64,000 nt of DNA, taken from positions 7,826 through 71,825 of the forward strand of contig CAYUOU010000007.1 of the NCBI GenBank assembly GCA_964446485.1. The letters are read 5' to 3'. The notes under the pieces were generated by a model that saw only the letters and a list, made by a program, of their open reading frames with translations, was not told where the DNA came from and did no database searches. The stretch comes from an uncultured Desulfobacterales bacterium. Its GTDB lineage: Bacteria; Desulfobacterota; Desulfobacteria; Desulfobacterales; JBDRRP01. Below, piece by piece: positions 4,114 to 52,300 of the stretch (positions within the stretch are counted from its first letter, which is position 1; each line of letters starts with the position of its first letter). The position numbers and the translations under genes are program-made.

Positions 4114-4136
4114 CCGATTGCTGAAAGGAGACGGTA

Positions 4137-5889: not shown

Positions 5890-5986
5890 AGTATTGGTTA
5901 TGACTCCAAAGCCCTGAGCCGAAAGTCGGGGCACCTGCCACGCGTCATACAATGCGCCACCCACGACAACGGATAAGGGAAATATT

Positions 5987-16762: not shown

Positions 16763-17197
16763 TTAGACATCGCGCTGCGCGAAAATGATGGTGACTTGAT
16801 TGGCGTCGCCACAACGCGCGTAGCTGACATCTTCGGAGAGATGCTTCACGATAAACACCCCGAGCCCACCCACAGTGCGCGCATCGATGTCATCACCGAT
16901 ATTGGGCGGCGGCAGCGCCAGGGGATCAAACGGCGGACCCCGGTCGATAAATGTCATCACCACGCGACCGGCGTTATCGGCATGGCACCCCACCGTCACC
17001 TCACCACCGCCCCCAGGGTAGGCATAATGGATGATATTGACCAGAAGCTCTTCTGCTACCAGTTCAACAGCCCCCACCCGATCAACGGAAAGCCCACACG
17101 CCGCGGCACGGGCCGAGAGGAAACCAACGGCTTCGGGCAGGTGTTGTAACCTTGCTGGGAATGTGTGTGTGGTCACTGTTGTCACCGTCGTGATCAA
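16763..17197 (-). CDS. RsbW/SpoIIAB-like anti-sigma-factor serine kinase (small GHKL ATPase)
   Basis: ELVAEELLVNIIHYAY (N-box-like), FIDRGPPFDP and TVGGLGVFIVKHL (G-boxes) in a protein of about 140 aa. Its TTG start overlaps the upstream stop (TTGA). Confidence 0.7.
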   Translation of the reverse strand: MITTVTTVTTHTFPARLQHLPEAVGFLSARAAACGLSVDRVGAVELVAEELLVNIIHYAYPGGGGEVTVGCHADNAGRVVMTFIDRGPPFDPLALPPPNIGDDIDARTVGGLGVFIVKHLSEDVSYARCGDANQVTIIFAQRDV

Positions 17198-28372: not shown

Positions 28373-31300
28373 TCAACGAACATTACCGCCGGATTCGTCG
28401 GGGATCTTGGCCTTTTTATCTAAACTCGCGCGCTGCTTCAACTGGGGATCGCTCAAGGGACCGACCGCAAAGTCCAAGGGGATGATGGTGCCCCGAACGG
28501 TGGCCATGGCATCACCGCTGTCTGTTTGAACCGATTGGGATTCGGTTTCATTACCGTATGCCGCTGCCTGTACCGTGACGCCGGCGTTTCCTGACCGCGC
28601 CGCGGATGATGTTGTTGCCATGGGGGCGATGATGTTTGTATCACCCGACGCGGGTTCCCCGTCGGAGCTCGCCTGGGCCTCGTCGGCGGCAGTGACGCCG
28701 GTTTCGACAAGGGCGGCTGTCGCGATACGCGGGAACGCGATTGGCGCCACGTCAAAGACTGCCGGCATAATTGTCGCCGCTGCTTCTGACGATGCCGTGG
28801 GCCCATCAAGCGAAGCGACATCCACAATGGTGCCGGTATCCGCCGCTACCATCGGGGCCGGGGCAGAAAAGACGGACAGCGAGGTCCTTGCCGGTTGAGG
28901 TGTTGCCTCCGCCGGAACTGCGGCATCCCCATCCGAAAAGCCTGCCGGCGTCGTGACGCCATAGCTGAACACCATGACATTGGACAAGGGATTGAATCCC
29001 GCGGGGTTCCAAGACTGTACCGTCCAACTGTAACTGCCATCTTCAAAGGTCATGGCCGGTGACCAGGTGCCCACTGAATCGAACCATTGCTCCTTGAAGA
29101 AATCGCCGTCCTTCAAGATGATCACCCGGTACCATTGGACATTGGGAAGCAGGGTCCAGGTGAAAGTGACGCCGGAAGGGCTTCCCAGGCTGCCGCTGGG
29201 GCTGATGGCCGTGGGCGTACCGGCGGCACCCGCAGCCGGAATGATGAATTGCGCAGGCGCGGATGTCAGCCCTGCCGGGGTGTTCCCATCCAGCGGCTGC
29301 ACGGTCCAGCGATAGGCGCCCGCCGCAAAGGCCGAGCCCGGAGCCCACTGCGTCGCGCCGTCAACCACCTGGGTCAAGAATGAGGCGCCGTCCTTCTCTA
29401 CGACAACCTGGTAGCGGGTGATTCCGCTGACGGGCGTCCAGATGAAGACAAGGCCGTCACCGGTTGTCGTACCGCTGGGTGCCAGAGCCTCCGGCCGGGC
29501 CTTGATGGTGAATGTTGCCGGATCCGATTTGGTGCCGAAACCCGCGGGGCTCCAGGGCTGCACCGTCCAAGCGTAGTCGCCTTGCGGGAAAGGATAGCTC
29601 GGGATCCACTCCGTACCGTCGACCCATAGCGCGTCAAAGACGGAACCGTTCCGGAGGATTTGCAGGTAGTACCGGGTTGCCCCATCGACGGACGGCCACC
29701 GGAAGGTGCCCCCGTCGCTGGTGAGCACGGTGATATCGTTGGTGGGTGTCGTCATCGGCGCATTCACCGACACATCGTCCGCGGTGATCCCGATAGACCC
29801 GGTTCCGGTGGTGGTGATTGGCGCATTGACCGAGATGGTGCCGTCCTGAGATGTCAATATCACCGAACCATCGTCGGTGGTGGTCAACCCGCTGACCGGA
29901 TCGTCCGCAACAGGAACCGGGGTACCGTCGTTCAAGACCCTGTCGATATTCAACGGACCCACCGTCCCGACTTCGAAGCTGTCGACATCGCTGATATAGA
30001 TGCCGCCGCTGCCGGAGGTGGCGGCCACGGTGTTCACTGCTGTATCCAGCGGGTCGCCTTCCGTGCCGATGCCAAGGCCCGCATCCATTTTCAACCCGTC
30101 GGCGATCACATCTGTAGTGGTGTCGCCGCCGTCGATAATCGATCCTGCTGTGGCCGTTAGGCTCACATCGCCGGCGGCGGCATCGATACCGCCGACTAAA
30201 ATGTCCTGGTCCGCCGTGTAGCGGATATTGCCGTCGGCGCTCTGGGTGGTGACCCCGTCGGTCATGGTAATGGAACCGGCACCGGCCGCCACATCGATGG
30301 TGCCGCCGTTGGAGATAATGTCGGCACCCTGGGCCACATCGGTGCCGGCCAGCAGAAGAACGCCGCCGGTGCCCGAAGTGGTCACGGTATTGGTGACTGC
30401 AGCCCCACCGGCCGCGGCGATGATGCCGACGTTTCCGCCGCCGGCATCGACGTTGCCAAGGGTAACGTCCAGGGCGGCTGTGTAGGCGATATCTCCGCCG
30501 GCGCTCTGGCTTGCCGCACTATCGGCCATAGCGATGGTACCGGCACCGGCAGACACGCCGATGGCGCCACCGCCGGTCGTGATATCGGCATTCTGCGTGA
30601 CGTGGGCGCCTGCTTGCAGGTCGACACTGCCGGTCTCGGTGGTGATGCCGGCATTCTGGGTGACGTCCCCATCCGATGCCAGGGTGACGTCACCACCGCC
30701 GGTGGCAGCCACCGGGCCGTCTATGGTGAGCGCACCGTTGACGACTTGCTGACTTACTGAGCCGCCGTCCGTCGTCGAGAATCCGCTCAGCGCCGGATCG
30801 GTGAGCACTGTTCCATCCTCGAGTACGAGGGTCTGCTCCGCCACGGTGCCGATGGACAGCGCGCCGTCATTGGCCACGTGGATGCCCCCGCTGCCGGCTG
30901 TGGCGGCAATGGTGTTCACCATGGTGTCGATGGGGTCCTCGGCGGTCCCGATGCCGATACCGGCCGTAAGTTTCAAAGTGTCTGCGACCACGTCCGTATC
31001 GCTGTCACCACCGTCGAGAATGGATCCACCGGCGGCAAGGGTCACATCCCCTGCCCCCGAATCGATGCCGGAGAGGGTCACATCCTGCGCCGCGGCGTAG
31101 CGGATGATGCCATCGGTAACCTGTGTAAGGGTTCCATCAGTCATAATGACGGATCCGGCGAGGGATTCCACATTGATGCCGCCGGCCACAGCGGAGACAT
31201 CCGCCTGTTGGGTTACATCGCCGGATGCCAGAAGCAGTATCACCCCGGCCCCGGCGACACGCACATCGGCATTCACTGTGAGCGCGCTGTTGGGAAGGAC

Positions 31301-34300
31301 AACGGAAATCGCCGGTGCCGTGCCGGCGGCGGTGATCCCCGTGCCGGTGATGGTCAGGTCGTCGGCTTCCTCGATGAACACCCCACCCTGGCCGGCGGCT
31401 GCCGACACCGAAGTCAAATTCGTGTCGATATCGCCGGCACCCACAAAGCCCATGGTGGTGCCCGCCGTCAGGACAGCGCTGTTGCCGGAAATATTTGCAT
31501 CCTCGCTGGTGGAGTTATCGATGATGGCGCCGGTGGTGGCCGTCACCACGACACTGGCTGCGGAAAGGGCGCTCAGGGCCACATCGCCTTGTGCCACGAG
31601 TGTGGCGGATGCAGCGGCCTGCGCTGCCGTGCCGTCGGCCATCGTGATATTGCCGCCGGTCACATCCAACGTGCCAAGCTCGCCGCCGGTGGTCGCGCCC
31701 ATGTCGGCGTTGAAAATGACATCACCGTCACCGCCGACCAAGGTCAGATCCTTCTGCCCACCGACGTGGCTGTTCGCCGGGCTGTCGGCGGTGAAGATGA
31801 TGTCTCCGATACCGATACCGGTGGCAACGCTCACATCGCTTCCAAGTGTGACGGCGCCGTTGAAGCGAACATCGTCGCCGGTGGTGGTCACCGTCATGCC
31901 TGCTGCGCCGCCGTTCAGGACAATCCCGCTGCCGTTGATGACATCGGCACCCGTGCCGATGTCGATGGCGCCGTCGGTGGCGACCACAGTCACCGGGCCG
32001 GTGAGCCCTGTCTCCGTGTCGCTGCCGCCAAGGACCACCCCGCCATCGGCCCGTTCCACCGTCAATGCGCCGATGGGTGTGCTGACGCCGATGTCTTCAT
32101 TGAACGCCACGCTGCCGGTGCCGGCGGCCAGGGTCAGGTCGTTGACCTCGCCAGGAGTGCCGTCCACCGGCGCGTTGTTGGTGAAGGTAATGTCTCCGGC
32201 GCCGGTACCGGTGTCGATGCGCACGGCGCTGGCCAAGGTGACCGCCGTGTCAAAGACGATATCCTGCCCGGCCGTAGTGATGGTAAACGTGTCGTCGCCG
32301 CCGTCCAGGGTGATGTTGGTGGCGGAAACGGTCAGCGCGCCAAGGATGTCATCGGCGCCCAGATCGCCGCCGAAGGTCACGGTGCCGGTTCCGGCGGTGA
32401 GGACCAGCGGGTTGTTCTCACCGGTCTGGCTGTCAATGGGGCTGTCCGGCGTAAAGGTGATGTCCCCGGCGCCAGCGCCGGTGTCGACAGTCACCGCGCT
32501 CTGGAGTGTGACGGCGCCGTTGAAGCGCACGTCGTCGCCGGTGGTGGTAACGGCCAGTGCGCCGGCCCCGCCGTTGAGGATGATACCGGTGCCGGTAATG
32601 GCAGCAATGCTGCCAATGTCGACGGCCCCATCGGTGTTGACCGCGTTCACCGGACCGGTGAGCGCCGTCTCGGTGTCGCTGGTCCCGAAGGTGACGCCGC
32701 CGGCCGCCGTCTCCACGGTAAAGGTGCCGATGCTCTGGATGGCGCCGATATCCTCATTGAAGAAAACGCTTCCCGCACCGGCGGCCAGGGTCAGATCGTT
32801 ATGCTCGCCGGCGATGCTGTCGATGGGACTGGCCGAAGAGAAAGCGATGCTGCCGGCGCCGCTGCCCGTGTCGATGGTCACTGCGCTGCCCAGGGTGACC
32901 GGCCCATGGAATCCCACATCAGCGCCTGCGGTGACGATGGTGACATCGCCCGCGCCGCCGTCCAAGGTAATGTCGGCTGCCGTGACAGCCAATGGACCAA
33001 GGCTGCCGCCAGTGCCCATGTCGCCGCCGGCAAGCACAGCACCGGTACCGGCCGTCAGGGTCAGGGGGTAGCTATTGGCCGGATCGATGACATCGCTGGT
33101 GACGCCGGCGATGGTGGTGGCGAAGAAGGACCCCGTGCCGTCGTTGTTCTCATCCAGTTCCGTATCGAGCGATGCCCGGAAGGTCTCCTCGGCGTTGACC
33201 GCCGCGATGACCTCGTTGGCCGTGGAGCCCCACACCAGAGCCTTTAGATCGCTCGTCACATCGGGGAATGCTATCTCCGTAAAGGTCCCGAAACCGGTGT
33301 TCCCCGGATCCAGGTCCGTATTCAGCGTCGCCGTGAAAGTGTCGTTCGCCTCGTTGTTGATGGCGGCGACGACATCGTTGGCAGTAGAGTCAGCAGCGAT
33401 GTGGACGGTGAGCACGTTGGTGCCGGCATCATAGGTTGCCGTCTCGGAGAATTTGGCCCCATCCATCACGAAAACGATGTCTGTGCTCTGCGGGGTGCCC
33501 TGGTTCTTGGCCTCGAGGGTCAGGGCGTTGTTGTCGCCGTCCGGATCGATGCTGCCCACGGCCACGGCCACGCTCTTGATGTGGATGGTCAGCATGTTGG
33601 CGACCGGGTCGTACTCAACCCATTCCTCGCCCTTTTCCACATCGTCCACGAAAACGATGTCGGTGTTTCGGTAGGCCTCGCCCGGGATAGCGGCGACAAA
33701 GGTGATGGCGTTATCGCTGCCATCCGGATCGATGGATCCAGTGGCGATCCCAAAAGCACTGTCGACGGTACCGCTGCCGGTGAAGACGATGTCGCCGGGC
33801 AGCGCCGCACCGGTGTCCATGACCACTTCGGATGCCATGACCACGTCGCCGTTCAATCGAATGTCGCCGCCGAGGGTGCTGAGGGTCAGGGGCGTGTCTG
33901 CACCGCCGCGGTTGATGGCCGCGATGACATGGCTGGCCGTGGAAACGCCTGCCTGGACGTGGAGGGTCAGCGTATTGGTGAAGGCGTCGAAATCGGCGGT
34001 TTCGGTGCCTGCCGCCGCCAGACCGTCCACCACCACGACGGTCAGCGCCGTCAGGTCGTAAGCGGGGTCACCGGCCGTGAATACCAGGGCGTTGTCATTT
34101 CCGGGCAGATCCAGCAAACCGGCCGCAGTCACCGTGTTGTAGATGCCGGGCGGAAGGGTCCCGGTGCCGTCGTTATCCGGGTCGTTGTCGCTGCCGTTCA
34201 GGACGGCGGCAAAGGTGCCGTCATCGTTGATGGCAGCGACGACCTGCGTAGCCGTTGATTCGCCGGCCGCCATGTGAATGGTCAGGGTATTGGTGCCGGC

Positions 34301-37300
34301 ATCGTAATCCACGGTTTCCGCGCCCGCCGTGTCCACGTCGTCGATAAATTCAACCGTCAAGGCCTCAACATCCACGCCGGGAACACCGGTCGACAGGACG
34401 AACGCGTTGTTGTCACCGGAATAATCCACCAGGCCCGCTGCGGTTAATTGATTGAAGTCCCCTGGCAGGAAGGTGCCGGTGCCGTCGCTGGCCGGGTTGG
34501 TATCGCTGTCTGTGAGGTCAGCGGTGAAGTGCCCGCCGTTGAACACGATACCGGTGACGCCGATTTCAGAGGCACTGCCCACATCGATGCCGTTGACCGC
34601 CGTCACCTGGGCCACCGGGCCGCTGTCGACGCCATCGGTGCCTGCGGTGCCGAAGACCACGCCGGTGGCGCCGGTGACGATGAGGCTGCCCAGTTCATTG
34701 GCCGCAGCGCCGGCACCGATGTCGGCGTTGAAGAATACCGTGCCGGTGCCGGCGGACACGATCAGATCGTTCATCTCACCGGTCTGGCTGTCCACCGGGC
34801 TGTCGTTGGTAAAGGTGACGTCGCCGGGTCCGGTATCGGTGTCGATGGTCACATCGCCGGCCAGCATTACCGCACCGTTGAGTCGGATGTCTTCACCGTC
34901 GGTGGACAGCGTCAGCGCACTGCCGCCGCCGTTGAACACGATGCCAAGGCCGCCGATGGCCTGCGTGCCGACGCCGAGATCGATGGGGCCGGCGGTGTCG
35001 ACCACGGTCACAGGGCCGGTGATGCCGCTGCCGGGCGTCTCGCTGTCGCTGCCGCCGAACACCACCCCGCCGTCGGCGCGGACCACAGTAAGGGCGCCAA
35101 TGGGGGTCCCAGCGCCCAGATCTTCGTTAAATGTCACGCTGCCCGTGCCGGCGGTAAGCGTCAGGTCGTTGGCTTCGCCCGTTTCGCTGTCCACGGGGCT
35201 GTCGTTGGTGAAGGTGATGTCGCCGGCGCCCGAACCGGTGTCCATGGATACCGCACTGGACAGGGTCACGGCACCGTTGAACCGTACCGGCGAATCGGTG
35301 GTGGTGACGGCCAGGGTGTCGTTTCCGCCGTTGAGGACAATGCCGCCGGCGATGGTGTTGGTGGCGGTGCCCACGTCGATGAGACCGGCAGTGGCGATGA
35401 CGGTCACCGGACCAGTGGCACCGGCCCCGGCCGTTTCCGTGTCGGCCTCGCCGAAGAAGACGCCCGCATCGGCGCGGGTAATGATCAGATCGCCCAGGGC
35501 CTGGGAGGCGCCAATGTCTTCATTGAACCGCACGGCGCCGGTGCCGGCGGTGATGGTGAGGTCATTGTTTTCACCGATCGGGGCGATGTCGCTGGTGACG
35601 TCGGCGTAGGCGCCGGCCAGGAAGAACCCGGTGCCGTCGTTGTTCACATCGGCCAGGGAGTTCAGGGCCGCCGTGAAGGTGCCTTCGGCGCCAACAGCGG
35701 CGATGATATCACCGGCCGTGGATCCGCCGACGGCTTTTTCTTCATCGGTCACGTCGGTGAAGGTGGTTGCCGTGAAGGTACCGGTGCCGTCGTTGGGCAT
35801 GAGGTCGCTCAGGGAGGCGGTGAAAGCCCCCGTGGCCTCGGCGTTGATGGCGGCAATCACCTCGTCGGCCGTGGAGCCGCCGTCACCGGCCTGCATATGG
35901 ACCGTCAAGGTGTTGGTGCCGATGTCGTACTCGGCCGTTTCGCTGCCCTTGACGGCGTCATCCACGAACACCACATCCACATTGGCGAAGGCCGCGCCGG
36001 AGGCGTTGGCAACCAAAGCGATGTCGTTGTTGTCGCCTGCCGGGTTGAAATACCCAGTGGCCACGGTGTCGCTCACGATATGAACGGTCAGGGTGTTGGT
36101 GGTTCTGTCGTAGGTGGCCGTTTCGCCGCCCACCGCCGGTGCGTCGTCCACGAAGATTACGGTCAGATCCTGGTAGATCTCTCCCGGGCTCGCGGCAGTG
36201 AAGGTCAAGGCATTGTTGCCGCCGGCCGAATCCAGGGTCCCCACGGCCAGGCCGAAATCGCTGTCCACCGGACTGTCATTGGTGAAGGCGACGTCGCCGG
36301 CCATCGCCACGCCGGTGGTGATGGCAAGATCGGTTTCCAGGCTCACGGCGCCGTTGAGGCGGATGGTGTCGCCAGAGGTGGAGAGCGTGATGAGGTTCGC
36401 CGTCGTGCCGCCGTTGAGAACGATGCCGCCGCTGCCGATGGCAGACGTGGCGCCCACATCGATGTCCGTGGTGGCGGTGTTGCCGTCCCCCGCAATGTTC
36501 ACCAGGGACACCGGGCCGAGGTCGCCGAACGCCGTGTCGGATCCGCCGAAGATCACGCCGTCGGCATCGGTGACCACCAGCCGCCTTAAGGCGCTGGCGT
36601 CGCCGATATTGGCGTTGAAGGAAACCGTTCCGGTGCCGCCGGTGAGGGTGAGATCGTTGGTCTCGCCGCTGGCGCTGTCCACCGCTGCCTGGCGGGTGAA
36701 AAGAATGTCGCCGGCACCGGCGCCCGTATCCACCGCCACATGGGTGTCGAGGGTGACGGTTCCGTTGAATCGAACGCTGTCGTCGCTGGTAGTGAGGGTG
36801 ATCAGATTGGCAGCCGTGCCGCCGTTGAGGACAATGCCCCCGGCACCGATGGCGGTGACGCTGCCGATATCGAGATCGATGGTGGCATCGTCGTCATCGC
36901 CGGCAATGGTCACTGCCGTCACCGGACCCAGGTCGCCGATCGCCGCATCGGCACCGCCGAAAGTCACGCCGTCGGCATCGGTGACGATGAGACGACCCAG
37001 GCCGGTGCCTGCCGCCGCCGCACCCACAGTGGCGTTGAAGGCCACCGCGCCGGTGCCCGCCGTGATCCTGAGATCGTTGGCCTCGTTGGCATCGCTGTCC
37101 ACAGTCGCGTGCTGCGTAAACATGACATCCCCGCCGCCCAAACCCGTATCCAGGGACACGTGAGCGCCCAGGGCCACCGGCCCGTTGAAGCGCATGTCGC
37201 CGCCGTCGGTGGTCACGGCCATCTGCAGGGTCTGGGGAGTGACACCGCCGATTTCGGTTACATCAATGAAATCTCCCGTCAGGTATTGACCCGTACCGTT

Positions 37301-40300
37301 GTTATTTAAATCGGTGTCGGTGTTCTGGAGATTGGCAGAGAAGGTCCCTTCATCGACAATGGCCGCAATGACCTGATTGGCCGTGGAACCGCCAGCCAGG
37401 ATGTGAATGGTCAAGGTGTTGGTGCCTGCATCATATTCAGCCGCTTCATTACCCGCCACTGCAAGATCATCAACAAACACCACTGTCATGTTTTCAAAGT
37501 CAAAGTCGGGTTCACTGGTGCCAAGGATCAGGGCGTTGTTGTCACCATCGAGGTCAACGACACCCGTCTGGGTCACCCGATTGAAAATCCCGGACAAATA
37601 GGTGCCAGTGCCGTCGTTGGCAGGATCGTTGTCGGTGTTCTGCAGATACGCTGTAAACACGCCGCCGTCGTTGATGGCGTCGATGACCTGGTTGGCCGTG
37701 GAATCGGCGGCCGCATGGACGGTGAGGACGTTGGTGCCGGCGTCATAATCCGCCGTCTCCAGACCATTGGTCCCGTCCAGCACAAAGGTCACATCGGTGT
37801 TTTCGAAGGCGGCCCCGGGGCTGTTGGCCACCAGGACCAGGGCGTTGTTGTCGCCGTCGGGATCCACGGTGCCGGATGCATTGGCAGAATCGGCGGTGGC
37901 GCCGCCGTTGAGGACGATGCCGCCGGTGATGGCTGAAGCAGCGCCGATGTCCATGGCGCCCTGGATGCTGATGATGTTCACCGGGCCGGTGGTGCCGTCG
38001 CCGAGCGTCTCGGTGTCGCTCTCTCCGAAGATGACGCCGCCGTCGGCCCGCGTGATGGTGAGGGCCGCCAGAGCCTGGGTCTCGCCGATGTTCTCGTTGA
38101 AGCGTACCGTGCCGATGCCGGCGGTGAGGGTAAGACCGTTGAACTCACCGTTCCGGCCGTCAACCGGGCTGTCGTTGGTGAAAACGATGTCGCCGGCGGC
38201 AGTGCCCGTGGTGATTACGGTATTCGAGTCTAAGACCACGGGGCCGTTGAAGCGCACATCGTCGCCGCTGGTGGTGATATTAAAGGTGCCGGCGCCGGCG
38301 TTCAAAACAATGCCGCCGTCAATGGCATTGGTGCCGGTGCCGATGTCGATGCCACCCTCGGTGTTGATCACTGCCACCGGGCCGGTGGTGCCGCTGCCGG
38401 CCGTCTCGCTGTCGGCCTCACCGAAGATGACGCCGCCGTCGGCCCGGGTGACGGCAAGCATGTTCAGGGCCCGGGTTTCGCCGATATTCTCATTGAACCG
38501 AACCGTACCCTCGCCGGCTGTCAATGTCAGGCTGTTGTTCTCAGTCGCCTGACTGTCCACCGGGCTGTCGTTGGTGAACGTGATGTCGCCCGCCGCCGTG
38601 TCGCCGGTGCTCACGGTAACATCCGAGGCGAGGGTCACGACGCCGTTGAAGCGGATGTCTGCGCCGGTGGCCGTGACGGCGATGGTGTCCGGGCCGCCGT
38701 TCAAAATGATGCCCGCGCCGCCGATGACGTTCGTTCCGGTGCCGAGATCAACGACACCCTGGGTGTTGACGATGTTCAACGGGCCAATGCCGGCCCCTTC
38801 AATGTCGGCCCCGCCGAAGATGACGCCGGTGGCGGCAACGACGACGGTCAGTTCATTGAGGTCCTGAATCGCGCCGATATCTTCGTTGAACTGAATCGCG
38901 CCGGTGGCGGCCGTCAGGGTCAGGCTGTTGAACTCGCCGTCCTGGCTGTCCACCGGGCTGTCATTGGTGAATGTGATGTCGCCGGCGACCGCAGTCATCA
39001 CGGTGTCGGAATAGAGCATCACAGGGCCGTTGAAGCGCAGCCCGCCGGTGGTGGTGGTGATGACGATGGGCGGCTCGGTGGTGGCTTCAACCCCGTCGTC
39101 GCCGCCGTTGAAGACGATGCCGCCGGCGCCGATGGCAGAAACGCTGCCAAGATCGATGCCGCTGGTGACGGTGACCCCATTCACCGGCGCCAGGTCGCCG
39201 TCAACGTCCGGCGTGTCGGCGCCGCCGAAGGTCACACCGGCGGCGTCGGTGATGGTCAGGCGGCCAAGCGCGCCGTCAGTCCCACTGCCGATGGCGGCGT
39301 TAAAGGAGACGCTGCCGGTGCCGGTTGTCAGGGTCAGATCGCTGGCCTCACCGGTCTCACTGTCCACCGGCGCAAATTGAGTGAACAGGATACTGCCTGC
39401 GCCGGTGCCGGTGTCGATGGATACGTCGGAGGCCAGTGTCACCGGTCCGTTGAAGCGGATGTCATCGTCGGTGGTGGTGATGGTCAGCGTGCCCGCGCCG
39501 CCGTTCAGTACGATTCCGGTGCCGCCGATGGCGTCGCCACCCGTGCCCATGTCGATGGCGCCGTCGGCGTTGATCAGCGTGACCGGGGTGGTCTCACCGA
39601 CGGTTACCCCGCCGGTGGCCTGGGTGACGGTCAAGGCGCCGATGGATTCCGAAGCGCCGATTTGGTCATTGACGAACACGCTGCCAGTACCGGCGGTGAG
39701 GGTCAGGTCGTAATGGGTGGTGACCGCATCGCTGTCGATGGGTGTGCTGTCGGCGAAACGAATGTCGCCGGCCGTGTCGGCGCCCGTGGTGAGGGTCGTG
39801 GCCTGCATCAGCACAATGCCCCGGCCGGTGCCGTTGGTGTCGAGCGTCATGTTACCGGCATTGGTGCTGATGGGCGCCGCCGCATCCAGGAAGAGGCTGC
39901 CGTTCGTGGTGCGGATCGCAATGCTGCCGACCGCCGCACCGTTGGCCAGGGCAACGACGGTGAGGTCATTCGTTTCCAGGATATCGATGCCGCCGCCGGT
40001 GGCGTTGGCGATATCAGCGGAGCCCACCGTGGTCTCCAGGGCGCCGAAGGCCCCGGCAACGCCGATGCCCGTGCCGGCGGAGATGACCAGCCGCCCGTCT
40101 GCCGCCTCTACGTCTACCAGTGCGTCGCCGCCGTCGATGACGCCGGCGTCGGTGGTGAGGGTCACCGCCGTGTCGGTGGCGTTCGTGGTCAGGAGGCCGC
40201 CCAGGGTGATATTTCCGCCCAAACCGTTGACAGCGCCCTCGGTGGAAAGTGCGATGACGCCGGCACCGGCATTGATGAGCATACCGTCGGCCATGGTAAT

Positions 40301-43300
40301 CACGTTCCCGGTGTCGCCGGCCGTGTCGTCGGCATTGGCCGTTACGGTAACGCCACCGGTGCCGGTGGCCGTGACGTCGCCATTATCAGTGAAGGTGACG
40401 CTGTCGTCGGCGGTAATGGCCACGCCGCCCGTGGTGCCGGTGACGATGGTCTGCTCGACAACCACGTCGGCATTGATCCCGCCGGCAATAATGGTGATGT
40501 CACCGTCAGCCGTGGTCACGCCGGTGCCGGCCGCAGCCACGGTGATGGTACCACCCAGGCTCTCAAGGCGAATGGTGCCTGTGGCCGCATCGCTGTCGTC
40601 AACGGTGTCGTTGGTGAGCCCGAGGACCGAAATGTTATCGGCTTCGGTGATGTCGATGTTGCCGGACCCGGTCAAATGGACGGTCAGGGTGTCCACGTTG
40701 ACATTGAGCGTAATGTCAGTAATGGCCGTAAAGTTCAGATCCTCGACGGTGATGGTGCCGCCGGTCTGGGTAATAGAACCGGTGGTGGCGTTGAAGGTAA
40801 TGGTCTCGGAGCCGGTGAGGTTGTCGGTAACGGTAATCACATTGCCGTTCACCACCAACGGGTCGAGGAAGGTGCTGGAGCCGAACACGATGGCCGCGCT
40901 GTCGGTCCAACCCAAGTGAATGGCCTGGAAACCGTCGGAAAGGGCGGCAATGTCGTTGTCGTCGATGTCGAGATCGCCGGCAACAACCAACGGTGAGCCG
41001 ATATCCATGGTTCCGGTGCTATACCTCGGCAGCATCGTCAGCAGTCCGCCGCCCTGAACCGTGTCCGCGCCGCCCTCGAATTCGATGGCATCGGATACCA
41101 GCAGAATGTCGCCATTGCCGTTGATGATGGTGAGGCTACTGCGGAAGCGAATCCTCGTGTCGACTTCAAGATCGACCGTGGCAGCGAGAACTGACCCGTC
41201 GAATCGCGTGGTGCCCAGACCGGCATGCTGCACGAGGTCGCCCTCCACCCGGATCTGGCCCGCAGTGGCAAAGGTAACATCGTTCGCATCCACAATCACC
41301 AAATCGCCGGCTGCCGTCACCTCTTCGTCAGCAAGGATGAGACCGCTGGCGGCCGCCCGGCTCACCTGCAGGGCAATGGCAGCCATGGCAGTAGCGTTGT
41401 TGAAGGTAGCCGCACTGACGGTTCCGGTACCGTCGTTGTAGTCGTAGGAGTAACTACCGCCGCCGCCATCCACGAAAACGGTATCCCCGGCGGTGTCCAG
41501 CGTTGCCGTGAACGTCCCTTCCGCATTGATGGCGGTGATTACCTGGTCGGCTGTCGTAACGCCGTTAGCGATCTGCACGGTCAGTGTATTGGTGGAGCCA
41601 TCGTAAGCGGCCGTTTCACTCCCGGCGGCGACGCCGCCCACAAAGTCGACGGTCGCATCTGCATAGCCATCGCCTGCAATGTTGGCCACCAGCCGGAAGG
41701 CATTGTCGCCACCTGCCGGATCAATGGTTCCTGTAGCCGCATCTGTGGTGCCCTCCAGGGTACCGTTAAACTGGATCACGTTCTCGGTGTTGATGGACAT
41801 CTCACCGACGGTGACATCGTCCAGGAACGTGGTGTTTCCGGTGCCGGACTCCTGAATCAAAACGTCCACGTTAACCAGGCCCTTGAAAGTAACGTTGTTG
41901 GCAGACCGGATGATGAGTTTTTTCAGCGGCGCAGCAATACCGATATCGCCGTTTACGATGATGTTGCCGGTGCCGGCATCCAGGATCAGGACTTCGTCCC
42001 CACCGCCGGCCGTACCGTAAATATCACCGAACTCACTCTTGGCCGGATCCCCTTCGATGATGATATCCGCCCCGTCACCACTGCCGACGGTGCTCAGGGT
42101 TACGGTCCGGCCGTCGTTGATGTGGACGTTGTCCGTGTATTTAATAAGGACACTGTCGGTAATATTGTCGCTGCTGAGATGGACGGTGTTGCCGGCGCCG
42201 ATAAAATGGACTTCCACATCGTCCTTCTCATCGCTGTCGGTAAATGTCGTGATGATACCTTCGACAAAGATGCCGCCGCCAAGCAACGGCGATCGGAAGG
42301 TCACCGAGTCTGTGAAGGTGTACGTCTGGATGGTGATCACGTGCCAGCCGTTGGCACGGCCGATGGTAATGCCGTCGAGGTTGGCGCTTTCCACGGCCTC
42401 CTGGTTGTCGAAGCCGTTGATGAGGCGATCCAGTTCAGCAGAGCTTAAATTGAAATCTCCGGGCGCACCGTCGGCAATGCCGATGCTGCGGTCGACGGAG
42501 AGGGGCTGCAGCAGCAGGGTTCCCCTGGGATCGGCCGGATCGGATCCGCTCCAGGCAGTGATGTCGGCGGCCACGTCGATGCTGTCGGTGGTGATGACGA
42601 TGTCGCCGCCCAGCGTGCTGACGGTCTTGCTGATGGAGAATTCGCCGCTGAGGTTGGTGATCTCGATGTCGCCGCCTTCTGCGCTGATGCCGGTCAATGT
42701 CTCGTCGCCGGTGGTGACCGGCACCACCACCGTGGCGATATTGGCACCGTCGATCTCGGTGAGGTAAATGCCCGCGGCATTGGATGTCTTCACTGCCAGA
42801 TCGTCAGTCTGGATGAGTACGGGTCGCGCCGGGCCGCCAATGCCGTCGACGATCTCCAGCCTCAGGGCGCCCGCCTTCAGGATAATCTGCCGGCCCGCGC
42901 CGTCGGTGATCTCGCGGCTGAGTTGGTCGACGCTGAGCAGGCCGTCCGCCTCCAGCGAGATGAGTCCGGCGGTCACCGAAGCATCGATGGCAATCTGACC
43001 AGCATCGATCACCAGATTCTCGTCCAGGGTCACCGCTTCGCTGATGGTCACGACGCCCAGGGGCAGATCGACCTCGATGGACTCGATGCCGCTATGTGTG
43101 CCAGCAACATCATCCCAGGTGTAGCCCGACCCGTTCAGATCCAATTGACTGGTGACGTCGGAGGCCACGCGGAGGATATCCGAGCCATCGCCGCCCATAA
43201 AGCGCTCGATGACGTTGCCCGTGTGGGTGACAGTGCTGGCGCCGTCGGTGGTGGCATTGCCCAGGTGAGTCACGAGATCGGTCGACACATTGCTGAAATC

Positions 43301-46300
43301 CAGAGTGTCGCTGCCGCCGCCCGGCAGTTCGTTCACCGTGTCGTCGCCCCAGGCGTTACCGAAAACATACAGGTCGTTGCCGGCACCGCCGTTGAGGGCG
43401 TCACTGCCGGCACCGCCGGTGAGCGTATCGCTGCCGGCACCGCCGTGGAGTTCGTCATCGCCGGATCCACCGGTGATGGCGTCATTACCGGCGCCGCCCA
43501 ATGCAATGACCGGCAACATGACCGTCGGATCCACCAGCAGCACATCATTTCCGATACCGCCGTCAAAATAGATGGCGGTGATGCCGGCAAAGGTTTCGGT
43601 AATGCCGAATGCGGTAACCTCGACATCCCCGCCGCTCATGTTCACGGAGAAGGCTTCAGCCACGTCCACCCCGCCGCCGACATCCCGCCGGTGGGAAGCG
43701 AAATTGCCGGCGCTCAGGATCAGAGTGCCGGCCTTGAGGTCATAGGGTGTGCCGTCCTTGGCGGTAATGATCGCATCGGCCTGGAGCACCGTGCCAAGGG
43801 CCTTGGTCAACGCCGAATCAGGCCGCACCCCGTCCAGACTGAGGAAAGTGAGATTCTTCAGCGCGTCAATGGCTGCAGGGTTGGTCAGTGGATCGACCGG
43901 TGCCAGGTCCTTGATATGGTTGTAGTCAAGGCTCAGCCGCTCGAGGGCCGCCAGCAGCGTCGGCGTCACCAGCGCGTCGAGATTCGTCTCGCCCACGGTG
44001 GCCGCACTGTCGCCCGGGTGTCTAAGGACTCGGGTCGGAGCATCGGCCATCACGCCTGCCCCCAGGATGCCGTCCCGCTTGAAGACCGACGAATCGAAAG
44101 CGGTGGTCGGCGATGACGCGTCAAACTGCCAGTAGCTGATGAGATCCGCATCGTCTCCAATCAGCCACTTGTTGTTGCTGCTGTTTTTGTAAAAAGTGAT
44201 CTGCTCGGCGGTTCGCACAGACCGCCAGATGCGCAGCTCGTCAAGCTGCCCGCTGAGGGCCTGACTGGCCTGGTACCTGCCCAGGACCTCATCCTGATCC
44301 TGGCCGATCACCAATCCATCGATGCCGAGAGCTGACGGACCCAATTCGAGGGCGGCTCCAAGATAATCCGTTGTCTTTGCAGCACCGCCCACCAAAGTGC
44401 CGTCGATGTAAAGGCTGACAGCGTCGGTGCCGCTGCCGTTCCAGTCCTGAACGACGGCGTAATGATGCCAGACATTGTCGTTGATGGGAGCAAGTCCGGC
44501 CCACTGGACGATTCTTCCCAGGCTGTAGAGCCGTAGTGTAGTTGCGTTCAGGAAAAAGATCAGAAATTCGTTGTTGTCGCCTGCGCTGGCACCGCTCAAC
44601 ACCGCTTGCTGGCCAGCCTTTGTCGTCTTGAACCAGAATTCCACGGTCACGTCGGTTTGGTCGTTGAGGACCAGGGGATCCAGCACCACCAGCTGCTTGT
44701 CGTTGTTGCCGTCGAAGCTCAAGGCCCCCGCGCCGTTGAAATCGATACTGAGGTTTTTCAAATGCTTCATGCCGATGGGCGCCCCGGTGGCGGCATCGGT
44801 ACCCGGCTGCAATTGGATCAGGGTGTCCAGGCGGTTCCCGTTGAGGTTCAGCGTTTCGAGGTTGATGGCGAACTGGAGGCCGCTGAGGTCGGAAATCCCA
44901 AGATAGGCCAGATTGAGCGTGGATAGGGTGGCCAGAGCGCTGCCGTAGATGGGCGCCTGGGCCAGGGGTCGGCCGTCCACACCCACTGTCACCGGAATGT
45001 TCAGGGCCCTGGCAATGCCCGCCTGGAGATCACGATCCGGAATGGCAATCTCTGGATCGATGGGATCCGGCTGGTTGCGGGCGAACTCTTCGGCCGGTGG
45101 CGGCGTGAAGGTCTCATCGGCTTCGATGTCGCGAAGCTCGCTGGACTCGCTGATGAAGAAGTCCTCACCGCTCTCGCCGAACAGTTCGTCATGGTCCCCG
45201 TTACCGATAATGACATCGTCGCCGTCGCCGCCGTGGATTTCGTCACGGTCTGACTCCGGCGTGTTCATGCCGGCCAGCGGTGCCTTTGCCGTAATGGCGA
45301 ATGGCAGGACGTCGATGCTTCCCGTGGTGGCCCAGAGGATCGCCGTGCCGCCACCGTCGTCACCCGAGTAGAAGAGCCTGTTGTTCGATGCGGTCAACGC
45401 CGTAGGAGTGTTGGACGCCAGGACTGCTGTATTGTCTGCGGTGCCGTCGCTGTACCACAGGGCACCGTTCAAGGAAAAGAAGAGCATGCGGCCCACCGCA
45501 GTCATGTCGTTGGGCATGGCATCCAGGGTCATGACCAGTTGCGTGATCTGCTGGAGCCCGTCGGCAAAACTTTTCCTAAGCTGCGGACCCGATTTTTCCG
45601 GGTTGTCATCGATGAAGAACAGCACGTCGCCCACGGCGGTCAACATCTTCGGCGTGCCGGCAATGGCTTTCACGGCCCGGGTGCCGACAGCGTCATGGAG
45701 CCACAGTTCGTCGCCGTTGACCGGGTGAACCACAGTGAAAAAGAGGCGGTCGCCCACGGCGGTGAGATTGGCCGCCGTGCCGGGCAGGTCTGTCACCAAC
45801 TGGATGCCGGTATCCGTTGTCCGCCACAGGACGTCGCGGCCACCGCTGGCGGTGGTGAAGTAGAGCGTCGTGCCGACCGGCGTCAGACCGTTGGGCGAGT
45901 TGCCCATATTCGCATCGAGAACGATGGTGTTGGCCGGATCGGCATCGCTTTGCCACAAGCTGTAACTGCCGGAGCCGTCGTTGACGGTGAAGGTGATGAT
46001 GCCGCGAGAAACGATAAAATCGTTGTTGCCGCCTTCAGGACGAACATCCGCCACGCTGTCCGTAGTCGCGGTCGGGGTGTGAATCACGCCGGTGCCGTTG
46101 TTGCCTCCGGCCTCGCCGCTGTGGAGAATGGCGGCGAATTGGAAGCTCGGATCGTCGGCAAGGGCCTTCTGGAAAGCATCGATGACCCGCAGCGCGGTGG
46201 TGGCGCCGTTCTGGATATTGATGGTGAGAATCCCCGCCGACCAGTTCGCGGTTGCGCTGCCGTCTGTGATGCTGCCGTCGTCGGTAAAGACAATGGTGGT

Positions 46301-49300
46301 TCCATTGAAGGCAGCGCCGGTCACCACGGCCTGGACCACCAGATTGTTGTTGGCGCCGGGGATGGACAAAATGGCCGCGGCCGGTGCCGAAGCGGTGCCG
46401 CCAGCGGTGGTCACAGGTGCCGTGTGGATCGTGCCGGAGCCATCGTTGCCGCCGAATTCGCCGAAATCCAGTTCCGCGGAAAAGCCGGGAGCGGCCAGGG
46501 CGTTGATTTCGGCAACCACGGCGGCGGCACTGGTCACGCCGTTGTCGATATTGATGGTCAGCACCTGAGTGGCAGGATCGTAGCTGACCACCGCCGCATC
46601 GCCGCTGACCGTACCGTCATCCACGAACCGGACGCTCATGCCGCTGTCGACGGAAAGGAGATTGGCATCCGTCTCGACAATGGCATTGCCCAGATCGGCC
46701 ACCAACACCGTCCCTGCGGCGGTGCTGTCACTGTGCCAGAGCTGCAGACGGTTCGTGGCGCTGTCCACCACCGTGAAGAAGATATTGGCATTCACCACGC
46801 CCAGCAGATCCGGCAGGATCTTGCCTGCCAAAACCTTGACGCGGGTTCCCTCGTCTCCGGCGCTCTTCCACAGTTCAAGCCCGCCGCCGCCGTCGTCGGT
46901 CACGTAATAGAGGTATCCACCAGTGGCCATGACGGTATCAGATTGAATGCCGGCCGCATCGATGTCGGTCACTGCGGCCCGCGTCGAGCCATCGCTCTTC
47001 CAGAGGTCATCGTCCACAGTGAAGTAAAGGGTCTCGCCCACGGCGGTCAGGGCCAGGGGATTGTTCGGCAGCGCTGCGCCGATGATGCCGGTGCCCATGG
47101 CATCGTTTTTCCACAGTTCGCTGCCGTTCACGATAAAGTAGAGACGGCTGCCGGCAGCGAACAGGTTCTGGGCATCGATGGCACCGCCCATTCCGTCGGT
47201 GACCTCGGAAGCCTGGATGCCGGTGGTGACCCACAGACTGCCGCCGGCGTTGAAGAACAATTGGTCGCCCACAGCGGTGAGAGACTGTGGATCTGCGAGG
47301 GACCGGTTGTCGGCATCCTTTACTTCCACGGTGGTGACGCCGTTGCTGCGCCACAGGACTCCCCCCGCCACGAAGAACAAGGTGCCGTTCACGTCGGTCA
47401 TCTCCGACGGTCCGGCGACATCTGCGCCGCCGTTGTCGCTGACGGGCGCGGTGCCGATCTCGAAATTGGGGTTGTAGACCCGCAGGAAGTAAGTCCCCGA
47501 GGCCAGCAGGCGCATGTCGATGATGGCCTGGCCTTCGGCCACAAGGGCGCCGTCCGCTGTGTAGACATCGGCCAGGACGCCGCTTCTTGCCGCCGTGGTC
47601 ACCAAGAGGCCGCTGCCCTGATTGTCGGGTCCGGCGCTTTGGAGCGTCACTGCTTCGGCGATGGTGAGAGATGGGACAGACAGTGCGGCCGCACCCGTGT
47701 GGATGACGGTAAGCACATTGCTGCTCCAGACCGCGACAAGGCCGGCGGCGGTAAAGGCCGGCGTCGTGTTCAGGATGGCAACCAGACTGCTGCTGTTGGT
47801 GGCGGCGCTCACGTCGATGGGCCCGACAACCGTGCCGTCCACGGCCAGGGAGAAGTTCCACAGAGCCCCGGCCTGGGCGTCGGTGACGCTGAAAGAAGCG
47901 GTGGCAAACGGCCCTGCGGTGATCACCGGCGTGTCGTCCACCTGCCTGCCGGCCGGGGTGACACGAAGGGTCATCCGCGTCCAGCCCTGGCTCAGGAGTG
48001 ATTGAACCACCGCCGTGAGATCCAGCGCCGTTTGGTTGGGGTCGGTAATGAACGTGTACAGAGCACTGGCGGTACCGTCCTCTACGGTGACCACACCGTC
48101 GCCTTCGGCAGCCAGGATCTCCACCCGCAGGGACGGAATGCTCTCGGCGCTGAATTTGGAAAGATCCCCGGTGACGCCGCTCTCGGATTTCCAAAGCCTT
48201 CCGCCGGCGGTAAAGAAGAGCCTGTCCGTAGCATCAGTGACCAAGTCGTCGCCGGGTGCCGCAACGAAATCACCGTTGAGATCCACCACCCGGACCGTGC
48301 CCGCCTCGGTGCCGTCGCTTTCCCAGAGGAAATCCCCTCGCGAGCTGCCCAGGACAAAGACCAGTGCACCGTCGACCTCTGTGAGAGATGATGGGGTCCC
48401 GGTGAGTTGTTTGATCTTTACCGTTGAAACTTCTGTTCCACTGCTCTTCCATAGATCCCCGTCACCGTCGGTAAAGTAGACATCCCCGCCCACAGCCGTC
48501 AGATTTGCTACAGGACCGGTGATGCCGGACGTCTTTACCGGTACTGTGCCGCCGCTGGTGCCATCGGTCTTCCACAGTTCGGTACCGTCGGCGAAGAAGT
48601 AAAGCGTGCCGTCCGCGCCGTTCACCGTCAGTTGGCTGGTTTCGCCGTTGAAGGATCTCAGCAGGGAAGATTCCCGCGTTGCCTCGACGATCCGCCACAA
48701 TTTCTCCAGCGTACCGTCGGAGCTGGAAAGGTAGAGGGCCTGGCTGCCTTCGGGGGTCAAGTTCTCCGGGTTGAAGATCATGATGACGGAGGTCACCGCG
48801 TTTCGGGTGGTGCCGTCGTATGACCACAGCACCACGCCGTTGCCGGCGTCGGCGGCAAAATAAAGGTCCCCGGCAGCGGATGGATACACCGTCAATCCGG
48901 TTGGTTCACTGTCGCCGCCGGTGTTGATGTCTTCCACCAGCGTGACACTGCTGCCGTCCCACTTCCAGAGCTCAACGCCCACATCGACGTGCTTCCCGGA
49001 GAAATAGAGGTCGCCGCCAAATTCAGCGAATCCAGTGGGGTTCATGACCTGGGAAACGGCATCCGCCAACGTGGTTTGATCATCGGTGCCGGTCTTGTAG
49101 AGTTTGAATTCCGTTCCCGCACTCGTGTCGGTGGCGCCGTAGAAGAGCTCACCGCCGAACACCGTGAAGTGCTGCGGGTTGAAGGCGTCAAGAGTGCTTG
49201 TGGCGTTGACCTGGACGGTGCCACCATCGGTCCCGTCGGTCTTCCAGAGCTCGACACCGTCGGTGCCGTTGTCAGCCGTGAAGTACAGTGCTCCGTTGAA

Positions 49301-52300
49301 GAGCGTTAGATTGGCCGGGTCGGCATTGCCGCTCGTGTTGATGTCCTTCACCCGGGTGACCAGGCCGAGAGTCGCTTGCGGTGCGGTGTCCACCGTGCCC
49401 GAGCCGTCGTTGCCAACCTCATGGGCTGCCTGGAAAAGTTGGTTGAAGTCTTCAGCGCGAGTGAGTTCCCATGGAGACCCATTTGGATCGTCATCACCGA
49501 CTTCGGTCACGACATAGATGCCGTTCTCAGACCCGGCGGTCTGGTTTTTCACCAGGACACGGTCGTCCACTTCAAGATCGACGCCACCAATTGAAACAGC
49601 CCCGTTGGCCGTCGCGGTGAGGCGTTTGTAAGTGGCGTTGTAGGTAGCGGCCAGGTTAGTATCCGAAGCGGCCTGCACGTCGTTCACTCTGAGGAGACCG
49701 CTTCCAGAGCCCGAGGCAAAGGCCAGGGCCGTGGTATCGACGGTGATGGGACCGGCGGTCGTGAGAATCCAATCACCGCTCTGAGTGCCACCCGCCACCG
49801 TCACCCAACTACCACTCTTCACCGGGAAGTTAACAGCGTCCAGGATGTCTTGTGCCGTTGATACGCCGGCCTCGATGCGGACGGTGAAGGTTCTGCTTGT
49901 CGAATTGTAATCGACGGTTTCGCTGCCTGCCGTGCCGCCGTCCACGTATTGGATGGTCACCCCGTTGTAAGTGGATCCCGGAATGACCGTGGTGAAGTTC
50001 AGGTCGTTGTCGTCGCCCGGTGACGTCAGCACGGTGGAGAATTGGACGTCAGTCCCATTCGCGGTCTGGACGGCCGTCGACATGGCGATCACACCGCCGG
50101 TGCCGACGTCGCCCAGCCCGGTTTCCTCGGTGCCGGTGAAGTAAACCCTGTCGAAGTCCAGATCGCGGGCGAGCACCCAATTCGTGCTGCCATCGCCGGT
50201 GTCGGTGACCACGTAAATGCCGTTATGGGTGGCGTCCGCTTGATCTTTCACCAATACACGGTCGCCGGCATTCATGGTGACCGTGTCGAGGATCAGCACA
50301 GCCTGGGGGCCGCTGTTGGTCAGGGTGCGGTTCGTGGCGTCATAGGTCGCCGTCAGCGCAGCCGTCGTGGCCGCCCTCACCGGATCCAGTTGGGTGGTGC
50401 CGGTGGCTTCGCTGAAGGCGATGGCATCCACACCAATATCGATGGTGTCCACCGTGTCGACACGGAAAGTTTTTCCGTCGTTGGCGCCAACGGGATCGAT
50501 CTGATCGCCGGTGACGGTCGTGTAGCTGTCACTCAGGATGCGATAATTCAGGGCGTCGATAACGGTCTGGGCAGTGGTAACGCCGTCTTCGATCTTGATG
50601 GTGAGGATGTTTGTCAGATCATCGTAGTAAACTTCGGCAGACCCGTTGGCCTGACTGCCGTCGTCGACGATGCGGATCTCATCTGTCTCGTTGATACTGG
50701 CACGGGCAGTTACTAAAATGTCATTGTTTGTTCCGGAGATACTGATGGCAGCATCTGCCTGGGTCGGATCGCTTCCGCCGCCGGTGGTGACGGTGGTGGC
50801 ACTGATGGTTCCAGCGTTACCCAACGTTATGGTGAACGCACTATCAAAAGCTGTATCGTCGATGATGGCCTGGCGTACTGTCGCAGCAGTGGTCGCGCCG
50901 CTTTCGAGGGTGACCGCCAGGATGGTGCCATCATAGGTTGCCGCCGCTGTCTGGTTTGTGATGGATCCGTCGTCGATGAAGATGATGGATCGGCCATTGT
51001 TGCCGGCGCCGGCGCTAATCGCTGTGAAGATCAATTGGGCGCTGCTGTTGTCAGTGTAGGTAGCTCCGGCGTTCGATGCATCCAGGCCGCCGTCCGCTGT
51101 ATCGCTTCCGGTGGTGACCGCTGTGCCCGGTGAACCGCCGGCATCAACAGAGAAGTCAGCCTTAAATGAGGCAATCCCCGTCGCACCTGGATCATATTCC
51201 GTAAACGTTTTGTCATCAGCAAGGCCTGGATCTCCTGTCGTCGACAGCGCCCAGGCCGTTTGCCCGTTGCTAGTGCCTGCAGTGATATAGGTAAATGCGC
51301 CGGTGGTGATCTCGGCGTCCTGGTTGAAATCAGATGTGCGTGTTAATTTCCAGTATGTGCCGCCGTCTCCAACGACTGTCACTTCGTAGATACCGTTGTG
51401 ACGGGAGATGGTCTGGTCTTTGACCAGCACGCGATCGGCGACGCTCAACGGCAAACCGTCGATGGAAATGGCGCCGAAAGATGAAGCTGTAAGCACGCCT
51501 GATGCATATGAAGCCGACAGGTTGTCCGTGGTGGACGCCCTGACCGGTGCGTGCAGGCTAAAGGGTTCATTGGCGGTGGTGAACTCAATGAACGTTTTTC
51601 CTTCGGCAAGGCCGACCGGGTTGTTGCTGGTGAGCGCCCAATGTTCATCACTGTTTGCCGTGCCCTGAGTCACATAAATCAAAGCACCTGAACTGATTTC
51701 AGCATCTTCATCAAATCCCGAATCCCTCGTGAGGACCCAGTTCGTGCTCCCATCGCCGACTGTCGTCACTGTATAGATACCGTTTTGGGCAGCGTCGGTC
51801 TGGTTCTTGACCAACACACGGTCACTCACGGAGAGTACAATATTATCTATCTGGATGGGGGCTTGGGTGTCGCTGTTGGTGAGCGTCGTGCCGCCACCGC
51901 CGTAAGTAGCAGTCAGAGAACCGGTAGTGGCAACGCGCACCGGGGCCAGAGGATTCAGACCGGTGGCCGATCCAATTGCCGAGGCGACAGAGGACCTTGT
52001 GGTATTGCCTGAATCGATGAGGACAGTGAGCACCCTGGAATAAGGATCGTAGGCCGCAAAGGCGCTGTTTGCATCGATGCTGGCATCGTCAATAAACCGA
52101 ATGTCAACGCCGTTCGCCGATGAGCCCGTGGCATTGGCTTCGAAATCAACACCGGAAACCGTGGCCGTTGATTCAACAGCTGTCACGCCACCGGTTGTGG
52201 TCACGGTTTGAGCATTGATGATTCCTGCGGTTGTAGCGCTCACCGTGTATGCATCATCAAAGGTGGTCTGGTTGTTTATGGCCGAGACCACGTTGGCCGC

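Follow-up and report, generated by a model that had tools for sequence, protein, structure and literature searches.

Motifs and outer domains of flagellar axial proteins and repeated domains of giant surface proteins are the closest described counterparts of the element reported here. The Flagellin_IN motif (PF07196), ~55 amino acids (aa) long, is built of a strand, a short Thr turn, a helix ending in Ile-Asn and another strand, and occurs repeatedly in FliD, FlgL, and flagellins. In the flagellin of Geovibrio thiophilus, the outer domain D5 duplicates D4 and sits within one of the loops of D4, D4 is itself related to domain D2 of FliD, and both D4 and D5 are β-sandwiches like Pfam DUF992 (PMC11532411, Nat Commun 2024). 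The giant flagellins of Oceanospirillales are enlarged by the “DE region,” a repeated insert with “AAIN..TGVTA” IN-type motifs (Thomson et al., 2018; PMC6248924). Outside the flagellum, giant RTX-type and β-solenoid surface adhesins with inserted or extender domains are huge, acidic and cysteine-free, contain RTX nonapeptides, and carry many repeated extracellular domains off a repetitive rod. Here, we describe a module of ~105 aa that recurs in a giant protein encoded by an uncultured Desulfobacterales bacterium, in a stretch of 64,000 nucleotides of contig CAYUOU010000007.1 (positions 7,826 to 71,825; assembly GCA_964446485.1), which is hereafter called the window in its full length. The module is uncurated but of a recognisable kind, namely the outer domains of flagellar axial proteins bearing an IN-like element, and in the giant protein it is found in tandem, inserted into the units of another repeat, nested within itself, and once circularly permuted.

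The dominant feature of the window is an open reading frame (ORF) of 11,840 codons on the minus strand (28373..63895). Since the frame remains open up to the last base of the window (64000), the N-terminus of the giant protein lies beyond the window and the true protein is longer than 11,840 aa. Like the giant adhesins mentioned above, the protein is devoid of cysteine (0 in 11,840 residues) and strongly acidic (1519 acidic vs. 406 basic residues), and it contains RTX nonapeptides. Copies of the module were detected with a regular-expression scan, followed by a hidden Markov model (HMM) built from 7 copies and iterated on the giant protein to convergence. This yielded 26 significant segments, which correspond to 20 contiguous copies and three copies each split in two, i.e., 23 homologous modules, with independent E-values (i-Evalues) of 1e-16 to 1e-32 per full copy. 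A sequence-only reading of the window had claimed at least 20 copies, and its nine listed cores (33399-33450, 33577-33630, 33956-34006, 34271-34321, 35893-35943, 36078-36128, 37400-37447, 37713-37760, and 41574-41620) each fall inside a detected copy; the region from 33.1 to 41.7 kb holds 9 modules. The “further copies” of that reading are equally real. A tandem pair occupies 46088..46720 (aa 5726-5821 and 5839-5936), and seven modules lie within 49829-53164, four of them as a tandem array at 51962..53164 (aa 3578-3672, 3689-3784, 3806-3884, and 3910-3978) and three at 49829..51070 (aa 4276-4362, 4380-4474, and 4621-4689), all assigned by the HMM. Single modules are found at 55691..55897 (aa 2667-2735; HMM E 1.5e-19, the C-terminal strand not being detected) and at 56654..56917 (aa 2327-2414; E 6.7e-22). 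A nested pair spans 61784..62398 (aa 500-704), where the N-part (62225-62398) and the C-part (61784-61885) of an outer copy enclose a complete inner copy (61934-62215). One additional copy, which the sequence-only reading had not listed, is located at 60980..61225 (aa 891-972; E 3.9e-19), and the strand, which it had left unstated, is minus for every copy.

Glycine, alanine, threonine, and aspartate account for 46% of the residues of the giant protein, a bias strong enough to suggest that the copies might share composition only and not be homologous. This explanation is refuted, and we grant it practically no probability: in 20 shuffles of the giant protein in which composition was kept within 100-aa blocks, 0 matches to the module HMM were obtained, the alignment of the copies is position-specific with conserved hydrophobic positions, and 479 representatives from the database scan described below match the module profile at E ≤ 1e-10. 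With pairwise identities of 27-58%, the copies are old duplicates, and neither low-complexity sequence nor an assembly artefact.

AlphaFold2 predicts that the module folds compactly and on its own. One copy (aa 8668-8770) was modeled with a predicted local distance difference test (pLDDT) score of 83.6 and a predicted template modeling (pTM) score of 0.76, and its secondary structure elements follow the order E-E-E-E-E-H-E, i.e., five strands, one helix and one strand, after which comes a tail with the pattern “NDGTGxFxxxxFxxVT.” A 231-aa unit comprising a nested pair of modules (aa 9210-9440) reached a mean pLDDT of 89.8 and a pTM of 0.77. Foldseek searches of the PDB (April 2026 copy) with these confident single and nested models retrieved no solved structure below E 0.2 and no flagellin among the 50 best matches; LpxC, the top match of both models (E ≥ 0.2, TM ~0.2), was taken as noise. 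At the sequence level, no Pfam family reached its threshold on any copy of the window or on 70 diverse homologous copies, and nothing in NCBIfam matched the module. Pfam HMA matches seen in 7 of the 70 copies (best E 0.004), all below threshold, were taken as generic strand-helix-strand similarity. A sequence search of the PDB gave weak matches only, to OspA (E 0.0013 to ~1e-2) and to FliD (E 0.06), and the OspA match was rejected because it consists of one β-hairpin segment of 37-40 residues (“..TAxYDxxTxTLTV..”) in which the hairpin pattern is what is similar. The “unassigned” status given to the module by the sequence-only reading thus withstands comparison with curated families and solved folds. 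As a side observation, a Foldseek search of the predicted viral structures in BFVD with the single-module model matched, weakly, large proteins from uncultured tailed phages that are themselves uncharacterised (A0A6J5P918, E 9e-4; A0A6J5SY06, TMq 0.62, E 2e-3, root-mean-square deviation 3.5 Å over 98 columns), so that structural proteins of phages may contain a small domain of similar shape.

If no curated family accounts for the module, it is not an orphan either, which the sequence-only reading could not see. When a profile of 17 full copies was run with HMMER against 1.84 billion cluster representatives, 1,050 of them matched at E ≤ 1e-3, including the 479 mentioned above. When 5.8 billion protein clusters were searched through a word index, stretches of the module returned no match, not even the giant protein itself; given the 1,050 representatives found with HMMER, this blank result is read as a limit of the index. 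Of the best 150 representatives, 59 possess flagellin-type helices at both termini (FlgL/flagellin) and 6 are FliD. By NCBIfam cut-off, homologues of ~880-1250 aa qualify as FlgL (the junction protein between hook and filament), and those of 1432-1916 aa have flagellin models as their best match, albeit under the curated cut-offs; the large flagellar-type homologues carry up to ~10 modules each. Within the remaining 75, protein length reaches 7,278 aa, and the top non-flagellar matches are named “beta strand repeat-containing protein” and come from metagenome-assembled genomes (MAGs) of Thermodesulfobacteriota. To judge by these profile matches, the module family is real, uncurated, and constitutes a repeated outer domain of oversized FlgL, FliD, and flagellins. 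A Deltaproteobacteria MAG encodes a 631-aa fragment in which five modules accompany ELWxxDGT repeats, the same combination as in the giant protein.

The part of the module that reads “TLTVxI-GxTTAxxVxxAIN-xFxAxL” resembles the flagellin hook IN motif, and its central portion, “..TTAxxVxxAIN..,” is consensus both within the giant protein and across the module family. One could therefore ask whether the module is a divergent member of Flagellin_IN, already known and missed by thresholds only. The Ile-Asn pair that follows the helix in the module copies (“VIAAIN”) speaks for such a membership, as does the fact that Flagellin_IN is, tied with HMA, the commonest sub-threshold Pfam match (7 of the 70 copies at E ≤ 10, best E 0.0034) with a consistent register. 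Moreover, jackhmmer searches seeded with bona fide IN motifs of module-bearing FlgL and FliD proteins recruit module copies, always at model positions ~51-87, and hhalign aligns the IN profile with the module profile over 36 columns at a probability of 68% and E 4.8e-5 (46% and E 2e-4 in another run; 34-36 columns only). The IN profile used was itself verified, since Pfam Flagellin_IN matches 10 of its 22 members (best E 4e-7) and the profile reaches solved FliD structures at E ~1e-4. The module family also sits in FlgL, FliD, and flagellins beside true IN motifs, although occurrence in flagellar hook-associated proteins and flagellins holds for the module homologues and not for the giant protein. 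Yet no copy reaches the Flagellin_IN gathering score of 22.7 bits (a copy of the window scores 9.2 bits, E 1.9), the similarity spans ~36 of the ~105 module positions, and the Pfam IN matches in the FlgL and FliD proteins fall outside the module matches. Unlike the IN profile, neither the module profile, whose FliD match stays at E 0.06, nor the module models searched with Foldseek reach the solved FliD structures. The module is twice as long as Flagellin_IN and differs from it by four extra N-terminal strands and by its conserved tail. On balance, we regard plain membership in Flagellin_IN as improbable; the module is a family distinct from, and longer than, Flagellin_IN, with which it probably shares an IN-like strand-helix-strand element by distant common descent.

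Like the module, D4 and D5 of the Geovibrio thiophilus flagellin represent an outer domain duplicated in a loop of its parent and linked to FliD domains; unlike D4 and D5, which the paper describes as β-sandwiches, the module has a predicted helix and no DUF992 match (PMC11532411). The DE region shares with the module the character of a repeated insert that enlarges flagellins and bears IN-type motifs, but the layout of the DE unit, “GDLxINGVxI...DDTAS...AIN,” is unlike that of the module, and identity between the two was rejected because module HMMs failed to detect six DE sequences (S4 file, PMC6248924), the best E-values being 0.06-6 in a search of these six.

Between 33.1 and 41.7 kb, the module occurs within a second repeat. 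This host scaffold (31487..42058, minus strand; aa 7280-10803) comprises 18 units of a 129-aa β-strand-rich repeat with the consensus VRFNGAVTLASDVSIDTGAGAGDILFTNDSPVDSDAGEANDLTLTAGTGAVTFNADIG...GGIVLNGGAEALTVTTT. It has no Pfam or NCBIfam match and seems to represent a separate, uncurated family of repeats, and its periodic β-strand pattern would fit a solenoid or β-helix. The sequence-only reading had described the modules as cassettes inserted in otherwise regular repeats, a description well borne out by the comparison of module and repeat boundaries: the array is broken five times, at two defined positions of the 129-aa unit only (sites A and B), and beyond each insert the repeat picks up in register. 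At site A, inserts separate “GGIVLNGG” from “aLTvTTT..VRFNG”; one module stands at aa 7388, and two modules each stand at aa 8672 and 9796. The first of these inserts (41459..41737; aa 7387-7479) follows the “..FNG” segment of the first detectable 129-aa unit, the second consists of two complete tandem modules (37289..37879; aa 8673-8764 and 8777-8869) between “GGIVLNGG” and “..LQMAVTTDGGDMRFNG,” and the third is an insert in permuted register (33848..34558; aa 9787-10003). Site B, between “FTNDSPVDS” and “GEaNDLTLTAGTG,” carries a nested pair at both aa 9216 and aa 10050. At 35627..36247 (aa 9217-9423; between “FTNDSPVDS” and “GENNDLTITAGTG”), the outer copy consists of 36059-36247 and 35627-35731 and the inner copy of 35780-36061; at 33131..33745 (aa 10051-10255), the outer copy consists of 33572-33745 and 33131-33229 and the inner copy of 33287-33562.

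Relatives of the scaffold, searched in one genome per species with aa 8500-9500, were found only in Planctomycetaceae, at four loci (L001-L004) with 36-52% identity. On these scaffold relatives only, the giant protein would be assigned to a planctomycete, and its source organism seems to be absent from this collection as well as from the word-index clusters. The four loci encode giant proteins with 89 units of the 129-aa repeat in total, in arrays of up to 47 consecutive units separated by 3-17 aa, and the module is absent from all four (all six reading frames scanned). Conversely, the 129-aa repeat was found in 0 of the 150 best module-bearing representatives. The empty sites of the Planctomycetaceae and the module proteins that lack the repeat thus serve as empty-site and donor-without-host controls, respectively, and support the view of the modules as inserted cassettes. 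A competing view would take the module as a diverged stretch of the 129-aa repeat, i.e., as variant rungs and not as a foreign cassette. There are indeed likenesses: the module start, “G.NNaL.l.A..G,” is similar to the repeat segment that follows site B (“GEaNDLTLTAGTG”), its tail, “NDGTG.F....dVTSD,” is similar to the segment that precedes site B, and HMMER local alignments of the repeat extend into the N-half of the module. However, hhalign found no significant relationship between the module and repeat profiles (probability 6-13%, P 0.002-0.007), the module is predicted to be a compact α/β domain with a helix, its tandem arrays occur far from the scaffold, and it is present in flagellar proteins without the repeat while the scaffold relatives are entirely without the module. 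The variant-rung explanation was rejected on the hhalign result and on the occurrence of modules without scaffold; it is largely refuted and, in our judgement, very improbable.

The three nested pairs (aa 500-704, 9217-9423, and 10051-10255) share the same order, in which the N-part of an outer module (strands 1-5) is followed by a complete module with its tail and then by the C-part of the outer module, made of the helix, the last strand, and “NDGTG.” In all three outer copies, the split point is the loop between “TLTVHI” and “GxSTAxxVIAAIN,” i.e., between strand 5 and the helix. The model of the nested pair places the outer helix and last strand after the inner copy, and this order of elements fits a domain within a domain. 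Of the best 150 representatives, 14, most of them of FlgL type, are nested at this same loop, and the nesting is therefore a property of the family and not a local accident.

The permuted insert of site A is organized differently. After the scaffold segment “GIVFNGG,” it begins with a lone C-piece of the module, “HFTADLTDSDTNPASDGTGTFLPGDFNQLT” (34451-34558; E 5e-6), 19 of whose 32 positions are identical to the C-piece of the copy at aa 8673-8764. It continues with a complete module (34160-34441) and then with a module (33848-34126) that ends after its helix (“..VIAAINRGG”) and runs directly into the scaffold sequence “PLTLSTLGGDIRLNG” / “ADTPLTLSTLGGDIRLNG.” The joint, “I.(L/A)N.GG,” is common to the module and the scaffold repeat, which suggests that the insert is the product of recombination between short similar stretches. 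The lone C-piece could complete the truncated module in three dimensions and so join the entry and exit points of the insert. From the order of segments in the nested and permuted inserts, the ends of the module, or the two sides of its split loop, would lie close together in space.

Our preferred explanation, which we consider likely, is that the module folds autonomously outside the cell and belongs to an uncurated family of flagellar outer domains, employed in the giant protein as a surface domain that can be inserted in loops, with a function that we infer. It is used there in two ways: as beads on a string in the tandem arrays (aa 3578-3978, 4276-4689, and 5726-5936), and as a plug-in at two specific loops of the 129-aa scaffold, where the domains would protrude sideways from a rod. 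The module also tolerates a complete second module within its strand-5/helix loop. Such nesting follows the out-and-back, domain-within-domain building principle of flagellins. Close chain ends, or close sides of the split loop, would let the module enter surface loops without breaking the fold of the host, and the inserts may have been acquired by recombination. The protruding modules would then form the exposed surface of the giant protein and probably serve as its structural or adhesive decoration. Axial proteins of the flagellum leave the cell in unfolded form and reach their fold outside it, with neither disulfides nor chaperones. Unaided extracellular folding of a cysteine-free domain would therefore explain why the same module is shared by flagellar and giant secreted proteins.

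Several observations weigh against this explanation or narrow its base. Of the 1,050 representatives, the top 150 were inspected, and the alignments behind the structure predictions are shallow (14-17 rows) and drawn entirely from the giant protein itself. The putative closeness of the module ends is read from segment order, and the putative solenoid fold of the scaffold from its periodic strand-like sequence pattern. Foldseek searches with the module models retrieved no FliD or flagellin structure, though those carry true IN motifs; the IN link therefore covers a substructure of 36 columns at most and could be convergent. Finally, no secretion gene was found among the ten scanned ORFs that neighbor the giant ORF, whose upstream side lies beyond the window.

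The role of the module might also be a different one, that of a ligand-binding adhesin, lectin, or Ca2+-binding domain rather than mainly structural decoration. Asp/Asn-rich loops such as “GDNN” and “NDGTG” are of the kind that binds Ca2+ in secreted repeat proteins, and both are conserved in the module. The PA14, pentaxin, FG-GAP, and RTX sequences that the giant protein also contains are typical of adhesins. A flagellar precedent is provided by Sphingomonas A1, where a flagellin β-domain with an IN motif binds alginate (PMC9751261). In contrast, the positions conserved across the module family are mostly turn glycines and alternating or core hydrophobics, with no obvious pocket signature, and no lectin family matched the module beyond noise. 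A primarily ligand-binding role would be compatible with the architecture of the protein; we consider it unlikely and retain structural or adhesive decoration as the more plausible use of the loop-inserted domain.

A bolder proposal can be formulated on the same material, in which the module is a fold without solved representative that moves between FlgL, FliD, or flagellin and non-flagellar surface giants and is recursively insertable into itself and into unrelated scaffolds. This proposal is tentative, and we would sooner expect it to fail than to hold. If true, such a mobile plug-in fold would be a concrete, traceable source, or sink, of the outer domains to which giant flagellar proteins owe their size.

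Other parts of the giant protein are more familiar. Its N-terminal third contains four P_proprotein domains (proprotein-convertase P domain), PA14, and FG-GAP repeats (Pfam; 49196-63895, aa 1456-2810, minus strand). Twelve ELWxxDGT repeats (TIGR04534, NCBIfam; 48557-54256, aa ~3214-5113, minus strand) flank the tandem module arrays, a pentaxin-type domain and leucine-rich repeats (LRR_4) are found at aa ~6320-6570 on the same strand (Pfam), and RTX nonapeptide repeats were recognized with 46.6 bits (HemolysinCabind, Pfam). Repeated extracellular domains are common in giant bacterial proteins, and domains carried off a repetitive rod would be another feature that the protein has in common with giant adhesins; unlike theirs, its repeated domain is not of the Big, cadherin, or FN3 type. 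The scanned neighbors of the giant ORF are ordinary metabolic and envelope genes, and the ABC transporter, membrane fusion protein, and TolC genes of type I secretion are all missing from the ten scanned within the window. Directly downstream of the giant gene and on the same strand, an ORF of 740 aa (26077-28299, minus strand) has no Pfam match at E ≤ 1e-3, and the same applies to an ORF of 346 aa further downstream (17194-18234, minus strand). The many plus-strand ORFs of 150-800 aa across the region of the giant gene are by-products of its GC-rich coding strand.

No major concept is changed by these results. Their practical value would lie in one new family model, which would annotate ~1,000 representatives, including the blank centers of large FlgL, FliD, and flagellins as well as many giant “beta strand repeat-containing” proteins. 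In the literature searched, no description of a flagellar-type domain inserted into repeat units was found. The most instructive part is the series of insertion, nesting, and permutation with its empty-site controls: the window presents an unusually clean natural domain-insertion series, in which a single module is found in tandem, as a loop insert at two sites, nested, and once circularly permuted, and for which the empty sites of relatives serve as comparison. Lastly, the origin of flagellar outer domains was left open for most clusters in the study of the Geovibrio flagellin (PMC11532411). The module ties non-flagellar surface giants to the outer domains found on oversized junction, cap, and filament proteins and thereby bears on that origin.

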